A stretch of 4,530 nt of DNA from the IMG/VR virus record IMGVR_UViG_2657245448_000001; one strand, written 5' to 3'. Every line of letters starts with the position of its first letter. Positions within the stretch are counted from its first letter, which is position 1. Origin of the DNA: a virus. Taxonomy: Duplodnaviria > Heunggongvirae > Uroviricota > Caudoviricetes. The translations under genes were made by a program, and so were the position numbers. The notes beneath the pieces were generated by a model. The model did not search any database. It was not told the origin of the DNA and saw nothing but the letters and a program-made list of their open reading frames with translations. Positions 1 to 4,530 of the stretch are shown piece after piece.

Positions 1-406
1 AAACCGGTTGACGTTCAAGGAAATCGGCAGGTAGCGGGGATACTGACTGATAGCCGTCATAGATTTGTGGCGGCTGTTCAGTATGCAGCGGTAACATCGC
101 CAGGTCGCACTCTCGGTCACCCCAGTAGCAGGCCGGGTCGAAAATGTACTGATCCACGACTAACGCATCCGGCACGCTGTTACTGGCTTTTACCTGCAAC
201 CAGACCAGCACCAGATCGCCGCTACGTAACGAGTCCAGCGATTTGCAATCACCATCTTTTCCCAGAAATTTTATCTTCTGTGATGTGACAGTTTCACCGT
301 TAATAACAGTCATTCCGTCACCGGTCATCGTGTAGTTGCCGCACTGAATTGCAGCCATCGCCGGAGCAGTAACCATCATAACTAACGCCAAACATAACCG
401 TTTCAT
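1..406 (-). CDS. 5'-complete, 3'-truncated ORF (at least 135 codons): secreted small protein N-terminus running in frame into a fructosamine-kinase-family C-terminal segment; probable prophage/host junction ORF
   Basis: Hand translation of the minus strand from ATG (plus 404-406) to position 1 gives no stop: MKRLCLALVMMVTAPAMAAIQCGNYTMTGDGMTVINGETVTSQKIKFLGKDGDCKSLDSLRSGDLVLVWLQVKASNSVPDALVVDQYIFDPACYWGDRECDLAMLPLHTEQPPQIYDGYQSVSPLPADFLERQPV... Residues 1-18 are a classic Sec signal peptide (MKR, hydrophobic core, AMA before the likely cleavage site). Residues 87-104 (YIFDPACYWGDRECDLAM) match the conserved C-terminal motif of the fructosamine-3-kinase family. The ATG overlaps the upstream gene stop (TAATG) and is preceded by AGAGGG. 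It is absent from the ORF track only because it runs off the window edge. Confidence 0.6.
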   Translation of the reverse strand, partial: MKRLCLALVMMVTAPAMAAIQCGNYTMTGDGMTVINGETVTSQKIKFLGKDGDCKSLDSLRSGDLVLVWLQVKASNSVPDALVVDQYIFDPACYWGDRECDLAMLPLHTEQPPQIYDGYQSVSPLPADFLERQPV

Positions 407-1470
407 TAAAGCCCTCTTTCCCTCGCTGATGAGGAAACAAGATCCGCCGCGCCACGCGCTTCACACATCATATCCATGTACCACGCCTGGCCCCTTGTGT
501 CGCCAGTGTACATAATCCCGCGCACAATATAAACGCCATCCGTTGCGATGCTGGCAGGCTGCGATGTGGTGCCGCTGAGCGTGATATTTCCGTCCGTGTT
601 CTGGTCGGTGATCTGACCACCAGCCATCGCAATATCGTTGTTCGACAACGCGGTACGATAGACGGAAGCCTGATCCAGCTGAATGAGCCCGTTAACCCGG
701 ATGTTCGGATTAATAAGCGCGCGGACGTTTACGCCGTTACCGATAGTCTGCTGCGGCATTCCAATAAGCCCGGTAGCGCTGTTGAGCACAATCGCTTCGT
801 GAACATATTCGTTATTCACCACCATCTGGCGCTGACCGTCCACGAATTGCCATGTTGCGCCACATTGTCCGGCTACGTTATCCATTAGATGCCGCGTCAT
901 GCCAAAGAGTACCCGCCCCCGGGGGAATACAGTAGCAGGCATTTCAGGCGTCAGGCCTTCGGTCGCGCCTTTGGCTTCGAAGTCTTTCATCAGCGCACGG
1001 TTCACATCAGCGACCGTGTAACCGGCAGCCAGCGTCTGTGAGGTTATACTGGTAGCAAAAGCCAGATCAGTATCTGCTGCCTGAATCAGGACGTAGGTAT
1101 CAACCGGACTGTCTTTTCCTGTGACCGAGTAGCGAATTTCACCGCTGAAAATCAGTCCGTAGTTGCGGCCATCTCTCTGGCCCACGTCCGCCGCGTCAAC
1201 TTCCCGCACGGTCCCTACGTCGCTTGCTGACACCTCCGGCGCGATACCGTCGTAACCGGCAATCAGACGCACTTTCGAAAACTCCTGCCCGGTAATTCGG
1301 TTCACAGTATCTGCCGAGAGGTTATAAATTTTGATAGTCCCTACCCGGGACGCGCTGCTGATGTTGAACCAGTCGATCGTAAAGGTGACTTTGAAATCAC
1401 TTAGCTCAATTCCCTGACCGTTCCCGTCCACAAGCTGCAGCTCGAAATGTCTCATCCAGTTCTGTGACAT
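406..1470 (-). CDS. phage tail/baseplate protein, 354 aa (possibly gpD-like baseplate hub; family not confirmed)
   Basis: Complete ORF with ATG start (plus 1468-1470) and TAA stop (406-408). GGAG sits 5 nt upstream of the ATG, and the start lies 2 nt after the stop of the preceding gene. It is the third gene downstream of the tape measure gene in a coupled operon. The product call is positional inference; I do not recognise the sequence itself. Confidence 0.7.
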   Translation of the reverse strand: MSQNWMRHFELQLVDGNGQGIELSDFKVTFTIDWFNISSASRVGTIKIYNLSADTVNRITGQEFSKVRLIAGYDGIAPEVSASDVGTVREVDAADVGQRDGRNYGLIFSGEIRYSVTGKDSPVDTYVLIQAADTDLAFATSITSQTLAAGYTVADVNRALMKDFEAKGATEGLTPEMPATVFPRGRVLFGMTRHLMDNVAGQCGATWQFVDGQRQMVVNNEYVHEAIVLNSATGLIGMPQQTIGNGVNVRALINPNIRVNGLIQLDQASVYRTALSNNDIAMAGGQITDQNTDGNITLSGTTSQPASIATDGVYIVRGIMYTGDTRGQAWYMDMMCEARGAADLVSSSARERGL

Positions 1471-1472
1471 GC

Positions 1473-1775
1473 TTACTCCGTTGATACCAGTAAATGGCTG
1501 CGACCGCCCAGGTCAGTTTTTGTGGGGTAATCCTGTGTGTTGTCATCACAGACCACCACCAGCTTAAAACCAAGCCCCATACAGGCGTACTGCGCCAGCA
1601 GGTCAGCACCAGTGACGAGAGGAATACCGGAGATTACCGGCTCCCCTCTGTCGTTCTGCAGGTCCATAATCCAGTACAGATCGCGCCATATGATGCTAAT
1701 CCGCCAGGTGACACCACCCAGGACGATGCTGAACTGCTGGTTGTCCGCTGTCAGCGGAATTTCCTGAATTGTCAT
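1473..1775 (-). CDS. small phage tail protein, 100 aa (hypothetical)
   Basis: Complete ORF with ATG start overlapping the upstream stop (TAATG at 1773-1777) and a GGGGGG run about 8 nt upstream. TAA stop at 1473-1475. No recognisable LysM-type motif. Confidence 0.6.
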   Translation of the reverse strand: MTIQEIPLTADNQQFSIVLGGVTWRISIIWRDLYWIMDLQNDRGEPVISGIPLVTGADLLAQYACMGLGFKLVVVCDDNTQDYPTKTDLGGRSHLLVSTE

Positions 1776-2362
1776 TAGCCGCCCCCCAGTAATGACGCCA
1801 CGTTACCCGTGATGCTTTTCAGCAGTGAAGTATCTGGAGGCTTTGTGGTTTTGTTGCCGCTGTTCTGTACCGCCGACGTGCTGGCCCCTTCCTTCATGTT
1901 GGTTTTATCCGCGACGGTAATCTGCTGTGTCCGGGAGATAATGACCTCCCTCAGGGTGAGGACGGCGGACAGGACGTTTTCGGTTGTCTTGTCCGTCGTC
2001 ACTTCCAGCGCCCGGATCAACATGTTGCTGTACAGCCGTTTACCGGTTACCACATCGAAGGGGATACGGCTTTCCTGCAGACCCAGTAGCTCCTGATACG
2101 TCTGCTGAGGACTCAGGCCGAGCAGGCTGGTAGCCGTCAGGTTACTGGCAAAATCCAGCAATGCGCCGCCACCGGCGAAACCAACCTCCATCACCACTTC
2201 TGACGGTTTTTTATAGGCATGATCAGCGACAGCGGCCCCGACCTCTACCGGATGCTCTGTTATTTCAAGCATATCTGTATGCTTCTCTGAAATAACAACA
2301 CTGGGAACAATCATTCCTATTTTTCTGCTCTGCTGATGAAAAAGTGTAGAGAGAATATCCAC
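1775..2362 (-). CDS. phage tail protein, 195 aa, immediately downstream of the tape measure gene (possibly gpU-like tail-completion/baseplate component)
   Basis: ORF opens with GTG (plus 2360-2362) overlapping the tape measure TAG stop (TAGTG), with a purine-rich GAGGGTGGG stretch upstream. The first in-frame ATG (codon 17) has AGGA directly abutting it, so GTG is the more likely start. Stop TAA at 1775-1777. Confidence 0.6.
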   Translation of the reverse strand: MDILSTLFHQQSRKIGMIVPSVVISEKHTDMLEITEHPVEVGAAVADHAYKKPSEVVMEVGFAGGGALLDFASNLTATSLLGLSPQQTYQELLGLQESRIPFDVVTGKRLYSNMLIRALEVTTDKTTENVLSAVLTLREVIISRTQQITVADKTNMKEGASTSAVQNSGNKTTKPPDTSLLKSITGNVASLLGGG

Positions 2363-4503
2363 TAACCCACCCTCACCTGATTACTTCGCATGACCTGAGC
2401 ATTTGCAGACTGTTGCCGACGTGCAACCTCATTACCGACAGCGTGCGGATCTCCGCCACCGTAAATGTGGTAGGTATTTTGCTGGTTAACCTCTGTCACT
2501 TTGCCACTAATTCCCGCCACGGCAGCCTTATTAATCAGCTCTCGAGAATAGATATTTCTTCCATTCTCATGCTGGATAATGCTGCTCATCAATGCTGACA
2601 TGGTTTGCGGATCGCTCATATTCAGGGCAGCCCGGGGATCCACTCCCAGTCGTTGCGATACAGCCCTGATATACGCTGTTGTGTTGTTATTATCAGACGC
2701 AGGTGCCCAGGTAGAGATAATTTTCTCCACACTGTTTATTCCCCGTCCGGCGTACAGCATTAACTGACGAGCAAGAGCCCGTAATCCATCAAAGGCAGTT
2801 TCAAATCTGGCAAATCGCCCGCCCGGGCGTTCAAGAGAAGCCCCTGCCTGACCAGCAAAATTAAGGTTTCCCGGATTGTTATTCCGTTCTCCTCGTTTCG
2901 TAGCCTGTGCATATTGTTCCGGCTCAGCACCTGGAATATCTGACTGAATATTTGCGCCTTTTACGGTATGAGGATTACGACCAAAATCGGTATCAATGCC
3001 AAGCCAGCGCAATGAATCTCCAATATTTTGTTTCGTGTAATCCCAGGATGACTTCGCACTGGCACCAATATTTTCGCGATCAGAGTACAAATACGCAGCA
3101 TAAGCCATCCAGCCTTTTAACCACGGCGGGACCGGCAAACCTGATATTTTCCCGAAAGCCCCCAGAACCCTGGATACCCAGACACCCGCGATGAATGTAC
3201 CAAGGATTTCCAGTGCATTTTGCCAGCCGCCAACACCATCTTTTAGTTCCAGAAGGTGATCACGAAGCCAGGTGATCGCATCCTTCGCTTTATCTATTGC
3301 CGGTTGCCATTTTTCCCAGTCGATAAGACTGTTACCGCCTTCTTTCCATGTTTTGTAGTCTTCCCACAAGAGACCGAGAGCCACGATCAGACCGGTAATC
3401 AGCCCTATAGGTGACATCCAGAAAGTAGAGTTAAGTATCCGCATGGCGACAACCAGACCGCCGATAACCTCTATCAGGGTTTTCGTTTCGGCATCCAGTT
3501 TCCCCCACCACTCGATGATATCTCCGACACCATCGACTATCCGAAATGCTACCCGCCCGACTATCTCACCCAGCCAGAGGATCCCCTTTATGACCTTTGT
3601 GATGGTGACTTCAATTTTGGGAAAATTTTCAATTATCTTTTTGCGCAGGTTATCAATCTGCCCCGCCAGTCCGTCCGCAAGATTCGATCCGATTTTGTCC
3701 CGCGCCATCCTGGCCATTTCACCGAGCGATTTCAGCGAGGTCATAAACCGGTTTGACGATAAGGCAGCCTGATCGGCATTAAATCCGATCGCTTTCACCA
3801 TTTCTGAATACTGAGCGCTGAACTGCCCCACTCCGCGACGCATAGCCATCAGGGTATTTTCGTCAATGCCCAGCATCTGCGCATACTGGTTAGCCCGGTA
3901 ATACGGCATGCTGCTGAGTTTCTGTCCAACGCCCGTAAAGATAGCAGCCATGTCACGCATGTTACCGCTGGCATCACGGGTCTGTACGCCCAGGCGATTC
4001 AGAAAGCCTTCTGCTCCGGGATTGTTACGAATAAACCGGGAGAGGCTTTCCAGAGAAGATCGCGCAGCGTCCACACTGCCGCCAACCTGCGAAACCGCAT
4101 AGCCAATAGACTGAATTCCCTGGACCGTCGCGCCGGTGCGCTGTGACGCCCAGTAAAGATTATCCAGGCCGGAGGCGATCTTAGCCGTGAAGGCCACCAC
4201 GGACAGCGCAGCCCCTTCAACAGCCAGCCCCATTTTGATGACATTTGCAGTTGTACCGGCGAGGACAGAACCGAACTTTTTCGCTCCTGCATCATCCACA
4301 CGGAAGCCAAGCGAGACGAGGAAATCTTTAATAGTTTCAGCGTTAGCTCGCCACGTCGCGACCTGGAGTGAATGGCTGCTTGCCAGGACGGCTGATAAGC
4401 CCGAACAACGTGACCGTGGACGGCGGTGGTCCGACCCACAGCGTGTAGTTGCCCTGCAACGGCGGGTTACCGCGTTCGGCAACGCGGACGATATCGGGAT
4501 CAA
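2362..4503 (-). CDS. phage tail tape measure protein (up to 713 aa; true start uncertain)
   Basis: Long ORF with typical tape measure organisation. Residues 45-300 are Ala/Gln-rich and predicted helical. Two Trp/Gly-rich hydrophobic blocks follow (about residues 307-380 and 425-475, nt 3364-3585 and 3079-3231). The gene sits directly after a chaperone-like frameshift arrangement. The TTG start at 4503 is the ORF-track start, but the first 44 codons are Arg/Cys/Pro-rich and look like an out-of-frame read. No canonical start with a Shine-Dalgarno sequence sits where protein-like sequence begins (about 4370). Confidence 0.85.
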   Translation of the reverse strand: MIPISSALPNAVTRRCRATTRCGSDHRRPRSRCSGLSAVLASSHSLQVATWRANAETIKDFLVSLGFRVDDAGAKKFGSVLAGTTANVIKMGLAVEGAALSVVAFTAKIASGLDNLYWASQRTGATVQGIQSIGYAVSQVGGSVDAARSSLESLSRFIRNNPGAEGFLNRLGVQTRDASGNMRDMAAIFTGVGQKLSSMPYYRANQYAQMLGIDENTLMAMRRGVGQFSAQYSEMVKAIGFNADQAALSSNRFMTSLKSLGEMARMARDKIGSNLADGLAGQIDNLRKKIIENFPKIEVTITKVIKGILWLGEIVGRVAFRIVDGVGDIIEWWGKLDAETKTLIEVIGGLVVAMRILNSTFWMSPIGLITGLIVALGLLWEDYKTWKEGGNSLIDWEKWQPAIDKAKDAITWLRDHLLELKDGVGGWQNALEILGTFIAGVWVSRVLGAFGKISGLPVPPWLKGWMAYAAYLYSDRENIGASAKSSWDYTKQNIGDSLRWLGIDTDFGRNPHTVKGANIQSDIPGAEPEQYAQATKRGERNNNPGNLNFAGQAGASLERPGGRFARFETAFDGLRALARQLMLYAGRGINSVEKIISTWAPASDNNNTTAYIRAVSQRLGVDPRAALNMSDPQTMSALMSSIIQHENGRNIYSRELINKAAVAGISGKVTEVNQQNTYHIYGGGDPHAVGNEVARRQQSANAQVMRSNQVRVG

Positions 4504-4530
4504 GATTGATTTTTTGCCTGCCCGTCACTT
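4343..4530 (-). CDS. 3' end of the gene upstream of the tape measure gene, probably the -1 frameshift extension of a tail assembly chaperone (lambda G/GT or P2 E/E' type); 5' end outside the window
   Basis: This frame is open from the window edge to TAA at 4343-4345 (VTGRQKINLDPDIVRVAERGNPPLQGNYTLWVGPPPSTVTLFGLISRPGKQPFTPGRDVAS). The tape measure frame, which is +1 relative to it, ends a separate upstream ORF with AAG-TGA at 4530-4525. The GTG at 4528 is the first codon read after a -1 slip on a heptamer ending in AAG. There is no convincing ribosome-binding site for independent initiation. Confidence 0.45.
   Translation of the reverse strand, partial: VTGRQKINLDPDIVRVAERGNPPLQGNYTLWVGPPPSTVTLFGLISRPGKQPFTPGRDVAS
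4525..4530 (-). other. last sense codon (AAG) and TGA stop of a small upstream ORF in the tape measure frame; candidate 3' part of a -1 slippery heptamer
   Basis: The minus strand reads AAG TGA at 4530-4525. The -1 frame continues open for 61 codons. The heptamer 5' part lies outside the window. Confidence 0.35.

Follow-up and report, generated by a model that had tools for sequence, protein, structure and literature searches.

Phages encode small exported proteins that do not belong to the virion, such as Bor and Lom of lambda, Llp of T5 and Cor of phi80. In phage HK97, gp15 confers superinfection exclusion: it blocks the entry of the genome of incoming phages in a tail-dependent manner (PMC3594210). 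HK97 gene 15 and related genes also provide the definition of a moron that we used here, i.e., a gene with its own promoter and terminator, a deviant composition and a distribution of presence and absence among related phages. Finally, SEN34 has been described as a temperate myovirus with lambdoid regulation (PMC5261728).

We analyzed a stretch of 4,530 nt from a virus record of the Caudoviricetes (IMGVR_UViG_2657245448_000001), hereafter the window. A gene starting at position 406 on the minus strand had been interpreted, from the letters only, as encoding a small secreted protein at a phage end, possibly a moron or a lysogenic-conversion factor comparable to Bor and Lom. Our results make it very probable that the window instead carries the truncated copy of a 111-aa exported protein of the PHROG 3443 family inside a four-piece mosaic. 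The small protein itself is already known, as it is catalogued as a hypothetical exported phage protein.

The reading frame at position 406

The ORF lies on the minus strand and its ATG occupies positions 406-404. Its translation begins MKRLCLALVMMVTAPAMAAIQCGNYTMTGDG and contains no stop codon, so that after 135 codons the frame is still open at the left edge of the window. A Shine-Dalgarno-like GAGGG can be read directly at 412-416 (minus strand), 5 nt 5' of the ATG. Directly upstream lies the baseplate hub gene (409-1470, minus strand; 354 aa), which was identified by its match to phrog_196 'baseplate hub' (2.3e-88) and by a weak match to PF22759. The TAA of the hub gene (408-406) shares a base with the ATG of the small gene (406-404), forming a TAATG overlap (404-408, minus strand) that is also found in the intact prophage (L001). 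This overlap is a translational coupling of the small gene to the hub gene. The good ribosome-binding site and the coupling to the tail operon proposed by the sequence-only reading are both confirmed by these observations.

The ORF starts with a predicted signal peptide of the Sec/SPase I type, MKRLCLALVMMVTAPAMA (codons 1-18; 353-406, minus strand), followed after the predicted cleavage site at A18 by AIQCGNY. The call is based on a simple heuristic with our own scoring (positive n-region, hydrophobic h-region of 7-15 residues, and small neutral residues at -3 and -1) and on comparison across the family. The small protein presents all these properties: the n-region contains K2 and R3 (net charge of +2 over the first 8 residues), the h-region LCLALVMMV has a mean Kyte-Doolittle value of 3.1 over 9 residues, and A-M-A is found at -3/-1 of the predicted cleavage site (AxA). 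It was also the sole protein to pass among the 17 proteins of the tail module in the intact prophage. The homologues agree, since 107 of 118 family members passed an anchored version of the test—the failures being mis-anchored or truncated sequences—and residue -1 was A or S in 108 of 118. The signal peptide claimed previously is thus supported by the homologues and is predicted to be cleavable and of the Sec type. No SPase II lipobox ([LVI][ASTVI][GAS]C at the end of the h-region) was found in the protein: Cys22 is preceded by A-I-Q, with a disallowed Q at -1, and Cys5 is located before the h-region.

Beyond the signal peptide, the alignments indicate that the ORF is a three-part chimera, in which phage codons 1-53 are followed by yfhM and then by yniA. 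Codons 1-53 (window 248-406) are identical to the start of the 111-aa protein WP_001551482.1, and positions 249-406 are 100% identical to the prophage gene (L001); base 248 presents an untemplated synonymous change (GAC>GAT). Codons 19-53 (248-352, minus strand), assigned by identity to L001, encode the beginning of the mature PHROG 3443 protein (35 residues). This part of the phage sequence spans the first 3 of about 7 predicted beta-strands (AF2 strand map) and includes the invariant Cys22. The next codon, TGC (Cys54; 245-247, minus strand), is a junction codon: T247 matches the phage and GC is derived from an AGC codon of yfhM. An exact 96-nt match located near the 3' end of yfhM (alpha2-macroglobulin; 151-246, minus strand) is read in its native frame and corresponds to codons 54-86. 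A single base matching neither yfhM nor yniA (position 150, minus strand) constitutes the middle base of a second junction codon, CAG (Gln86). The last part (1-149, minus strand; about codons 86-135) is a fragment of yniA, a gene of the fructosamine kinase family, which is also in its native frame, extends past the window and is 100% identical to K-12. This segment is present in all 5426 complete E. coli genomes that we searched. Pfam identified the same part as fructosamine kinase (PF03881; residues 85-134; 6.1e-19; profile positions 207-256 of 288), and residues 87-135 belong to this family as a fragment. Both left joints preserve the native frames of all three genes and each carries one base explained by neither parent (248 and 150).

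The sequence-only reading had proposed a small mature domain of a protein of ~85 residues, with a possible disulfide between Cys22 and Cys54. The native residue at position 54 is Tyr, and the 31 aligned homologues show Y, D, E or W at this position but never Cys; Cys54 is an artefact of the junction. Because residues 54-86 are a fragment of YfhM, residues 87 onward belong to YniA and Cys54 was made at the joint, there is no 85-residue domain and no Cys22-Cys54 disulfide. The invariant pair of cysteines is C22 and C105. In line with this, neither the search for homologues nor the protein search with the chimeric ORF returned a homologue with the 54-85 segment and Cys54. For comparison, full-length members of PHROG 3443 cover ~115 profile positions and include the motifs TSQK, MGLMP..DGNNYGF and GSFPC as well as Cys105. 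The window ORF retains residues 1-53 only and is a fragment of such a member: residues 54-111, including the invariant Cys105 and most of the barrel, are replaced by host gene fragments. As it retains 3 of about 7 strands and a single cysteine of the invariant pair, the window copy cannot be functional, and the chimeric ORF cannot form the native barrel. This ORF is of little consequence in itself, as it is the truncated copy of a catalogued hypothetical protein, and several sources already describe members of its family as secreted or exported.

Searching with the chimeric ORF, we found no instance of the fusion protein among 5.8 billion clusters. Two matches of higher coverage (P0121 and P0123) were rejected as other yniA truncations or chimeras with a different joint. 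In three predicted proteins of ENA metagenome assemblies (P0133, P0125 and P0121), this C-terminal part of YniA follows an unrelated N-terminus or an internal deletion. In P0133, for instance, the N-terminus is YdjM-like and the joint lies at ...SDGPYIFDPACYW; the joint of the window is shared by none of the three.

The window as a mosaic of prophage and host DNA

The window is composed of four pieces in the order yniA, yfhM, 4096 bp of prophage and yjbG. The prophage-derived core (249-4344) is exactly 4096 bp long (2^12); it starts at codon 2 of the tape-measure gene and reaches codon 53 of the small gene. A prophage found in 65 complete E. coli genomes is 100% identical to this core, NZ_AP022003.1 being one of its carriers. 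On the right side, a fragment of yjbG (a capsule gene of the GfcC family; 4344-4530, minus strand), which is 100% identical to K-12, abuts the tape-measure gene, and the ATG of the latter is lost at this joint. The native frame of yjbG meets a TAA created at the right joint. A 713-aa ORF (2362-4503) reads through the joint between yjbG and the tape-measure gene, and this does not constitute a real N-terminal extension.

We searched for these junctions in several collections. Among the 5426 complete E. coli genomes (megablast and blastn), no place covered at least 80% of window 1-420, and the exact junction strings were absent from contigs of species-representative genomes and of metagenomes. 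We also considered that the mosaic could be a rearrangement of NZ_AP022003.1. In this genome, yfhM lies about 55 kb downstream of the phage tail genes, on the same strand and colinear with them, and both yniA and yjbG have the opposite orientation to these genes, which implies that at least three breakpoints are needed. This origin was rejected: NZ_AP022003.1 presents 4 mismatches in the 185 positions of the yjbG piece and one mismatch in the yfhM alignment, whereas the yniA and yjbG pieces match K-12 perfectly, although no match to the prophage was seen in K-12. Finally, a prophage boundary is defined by phage DNA ending at an attachment site beside an integrase or at a known integration locus. 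The phage DNA of the window breaks off within a gene at both ends, namely in the tape-measure gene at codon 2 and in the small gene at codon 53.

These results suggest that a chimera or a construct is a more likely origin of the window than a natural prophage boundary or remnant. An artefact is favored by the power-of-two length of the core, by the same-sense and in-frame joints and by the absence of the junctions from every collection searched. A genuine mosaic seems unlikely to us; the window would then represent a decayed and rearranged prophage remnant of an unsampled K-12-like E. coli, whose hybrid ORF is a pseudogene or an in-frame fusion. Every piece is indeed E. coli DNA, but a core of exactly 2^12 bp and junctions missing from all the collections would be left to explain. 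The location of yfhM on the same strand and about 55 kb from the prophage means that a single deletion (about 59 kb) could form the joint between phage and yfhM, but such a deletion would take out purL, glyA and the isc operon. The joints carry single untemplated bases, as illegitimate recombination typically leaves, but at least three breakpoints with two inversions or translocations are required, and we estimated that four pieces in sense on one strand with two joints in frame would occur by chance in roughly 1 in 72 cases. Findings based on the ends of the window warrant caution, since the supposed phage end and Cys22-Cys54 domain both arose as artefacts of the mosaic.

The native protein and its genomic position

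In the intact prophage, the native gene encodes a protein of 111 aa (WP_001551482.1) that matches phrog_3443 (function unknown; 2.7e-53; profile positions 6-114). We identified 410 clusters of homologues at 90% identity, and all the named ones belong to Enterobacterales. A profile search of 1.84 billion representatives returned only 62 clusters at 50% identity. Some members are named 'Secreted protein' in UniRef and one GenBank record is labelled 'putative exported protein'. In an alignment of 31 diverse members, the N-terminal 18-22 residues are variable and hydrophobic with small residues at -3/-1, and the mature part is strongly conserved, with 24 invariant columns and exactly two cysteines (C22 and C105). 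The same layout is kept in distant members of the family. Two longer proteins, P0203 (292 aa) and P0222 (265 aa), carry the domain at their C-terminus and possess lipobox-like N-termini (LSGC and LVSC), with no Pfam match in either part. The PHROG 3443 family thus also exists as a domain of putative larger envelope lipoproteins.

No match to the native protein was found in Pfam, NCBIfam, PADLOC or PDB sequence profiles. At E <= 1, the Pfam scan yielded only a sub-threshold DUF4488 (0.14), and Pfam returned nothing for ten more distant family members obtained from the search of 1.84 billion proteins. The AF2 model, which was generated with P0002 (97% identical to the native protein) as first row, is all-beta with seven strands (mean pLDDT of 79.9 and pTM of 0.68) and places the two cysteines on the first and last strands. 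Foldseek identified nothing significant. Predicted export by Sec together with a putative C22-C105 disulfide is well supported by the family comparison, and this disulfide probably staples the barrel. Most likely, the native protein resides in the periplasm as a small beta-barrel stapled by a disulfide and is produced together with the late tail genes.

Two of the deposited homologues, SEN34_20 (L006 4501-4842) and QBP27692 of ST340-VIM1phi10.1 (L008 4501-4842), are annotated with a CDS of 234 nt that starts at an internal codon. These starts are probably mis-annotated, as homology and an open frame continue ~108 nt further upstream and include the signal peptide. The records of the vB_EcoM-6xxR phages are mentioned in no paper of the literature, and the SEN34 paper (PMC5261728) is silent on the small gene.

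The E. coli prophage presents the following gene order, as established with Pfam and PHROG: tape measure, Dit-like, plug, hub, small exported protein, variable gene, spike, gp25-like, baseplate J, wedge and fibres. The small gene is located in the middle of the operon and of the baseplate genes, about 6 kb before the fibre/invertase end. The intact prophage extends past the tail-fibre and invertase genes and borders yfhH-pgpC-tadA. The succession of hub, small gene, variable gene and spike is kept in Salmonella SEN34, Klebsiella Mulock and ST340-VIM1phi10.1 (35-58% protein identity). The gene occupies this hub-spike slot in intact SEN34-like temperate myophages (Brunovirus-type) of E. coli, Klebsiella, Salmonella and Yersinia. 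Its mid-baseplate position in every intact relative examined contradicts the earlier description of a phage-end gene.

Other phages do not carry the gene. In Providencia phage PSTCR3 the spike directly follows the hub, three unrelated genes are found in the slot of Hafnia phage yong1 (whose hub is 77% identical), and an unrelated gene occupies it in Burkholderia phage Magia. These three phages indicate that the hub-spike junction is a slot for accessory genes and that the small gene is dispensable for such baseplates. The Magia gene (gene 021; L019 3457-3828, minus strand) is in opposite orientation, and its 123-aa product contains two cysteines and a clear signal peptide (MKKLLLIAALLAPLTAVA). 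There are hints that the hub-spike slot repeatedly collects exported cargo, and in distant relatives it could hold other envelope-targeted cargo, such as the unrelated Magia_021.

We then compared the small gene to the definition of a moron. It is indeed present in some related phages and absent from others. Its GC-content is low relative to its neighbors (45.2% versus 51-54%) but its GC3 (54.5%) is close to theirs. The gene overlaps both of its neighbors, and no promoter or terminator of its own was found. The sequence-only reading had also suggested expression from a local promoter, which was not corroborated: we found no sigma-70-like site upstream within the hub gene, and the number of promoter-like sites in the region was not above that of shuffled sequences (6 versus 3.6 +/- 2.1). 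The view of the gene as moron-like cargo holds in that the native gene is accessory and no core structural gene, as seen in PSTCR3, yong1 and Magia, but not in its location at a prophage end.

A sigma-70-like site (GTGAAA, 18-nt spacer, TAAAAT; 9/12) is found inside the small gene (window 268-297, minus strand; L001 6020-6049) and faces the downstream low-GC gene. This is a consensus match only, and the count of such sites is not above shuffles. The downstream gene, which is absent from the window, follows the small gene in the intact prophage (L001 5314-5826, minus strand) and encodes 170 aa, with a GC-content of 38.4%, a GC3 of 33.9% and a strong terminator-like hairpin 3' of the gene (5297-5274). 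Its product matches phrog_19013 (unknown function) and has no match in Pfam, PADLOC or NCBIfam. This neighbor fits the definition of a moron far better than the small gene. Each relative carries a different gene of low GC at this position: SEN34_21 and Mulock_021 present N-terminal membrane helices, and a 188-aa protein of ST340 contains a HEAGH motif.

Possible roles and comparison with described systems

Translation of the small gene is coupled to that of the hub gene, as indicated by their overlap, and the protein would be made with the late tail operon. It is predicted to be exported by Sec and cut after A18 at the AxA site. The mature protein would then fold as a small all-beta barrel, presumably stapled by Cys22-Cys105, and would most likely act in the cell envelope, possibly by blocking a periplasmic step of superinfecting phages. 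An envelope-level role, perhaps superinfection exclusion, can be inferred weakly, only from location, export and analogy with cargo of tail operons such as HK97 gp15. We tentatively propose, as a possibility that we would rate well below even, that PHROG 3443 comprises uncharacterised periplasmic disulfide-stapled barrels of the hub-spike slot that block a periplasmic infection step of related phages, through superinfection exclusion or immunity to tail-tip activity. The family is widespread in prophages of Enterobacterales and represents a reasonable but unremarkable candidate for an envelope or exclusion factor.

Two other roles of the native protein were considered. It is improbable that the protein is a periplasmic inhibitor of peptidoglycan hydrolases similar to MliC, PliC and PhiA, which would neutralise the tail lysin of incoming related phages or serve as an immunity protein. 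Indeed, the scores of avidins and of other generic barrels equal or exceed those of these inhibitors, Foldseek showed nothing significant, and no match to Pfam MliC was obtained even at E <= 1. In addition, the C-terminal 261 residues of the tape measure (window 2365-3147, minus strand), which contain an ERNNNPGNL motif, have no Pfam match even at E <= 5, so the idea that the protein inhibits the lysin of its own tail is unsupported. In several relatives (yong1, ST340-VIM1phi10.1 and Magia), the tape measure bears an annotation of SLT, lytic transglycosylase or lysozyme-like; yong1 possesses an SLT-annotated tape measure and yet does not carry the small gene.

More improbable still is that the 111-aa protein constitutes a structural component of the baseplate, or of its assembly, with an uncleaved hydrophobic N-terminus. 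Its position inside the baseplate cluster, its coupling to the hub and its conserved mature part would be compatible with this role, but the gene is absent from related baseplates (PSTCR3 and yong1). The N-terminus varies and yet retains the properties of a signal peptide and the AxA site, the invariant pair of cysteines is typical of periplasmic proteins, and the distant members P0203 and P0222 carry the domain at the C-terminus of lipobox-bearing proteins.

An exported protein that is intact over ~85 residues, contains a Cys22-Cys54 disulfide and, like Bor or Lom, is encoded at the prophage end as a moron or a factor of lysogenic conversion is hardly credible and was ruled out by the alignments: its signal peptide, ribosome-binding site and coupling are real and the native gene is accessory, but its residues derive from YfhM (54-86) and YniA (87 onward), its Cys54 is a product of the joint that is seen in 0 of the 31 aligned homologues, all intact relatives place the gene between hub and spike, and no named family matches, Bor and Lom included.

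The closest counterpart of the window ORF is WP_001551482.1 and the other PHROG 3443 proteins, for instance those of vB_EcoM-611R5, SEN34_20 and Mulock_020. The window shares with WP_001551482.1 the identical codons 1-53, the upstream hub and the TAATG coupling, but WP_001551482.1 possesses residues 54-111 where the window copy presents fragments of host genes. The native protein, most likely a small periplasmic barrel, resembles the lysozyme-inhibitor barrels MliC, PliC and PhiA at the level of the fold only, and no better than it resembles avidins. Members of the MliC/PliC group are recognized by a Pfam MliC match and by an eight-stranded barrel with conserved lysozyme-binding loops, and no sequence or profile match (Pfam) to them was found.

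The small protein also differs from Bor, Lom, Llp and Cor. It does not possess a lipobox (Q at -1 of Cys22), and its gene is located in the hub-spike slot rather than downstream of the tail fibres or at a prophage end. The relationship to Bor, Lom or exclusion proteins suggested by the sequence-only reading did not hold, as no match was found in Pfam (E <= 1 for the Bor and Lom families), NCBIfam or PADLOC. The PHROG 3443 protein differs from HK97 gp15 in being predicted as soluble and periplasmic, with no detectable promoter of its own and no sequence relationship to gp15. The two nevertheless have in common that they are small, envelope-targeted accessory proteins from the tail operon of a temperate phage.
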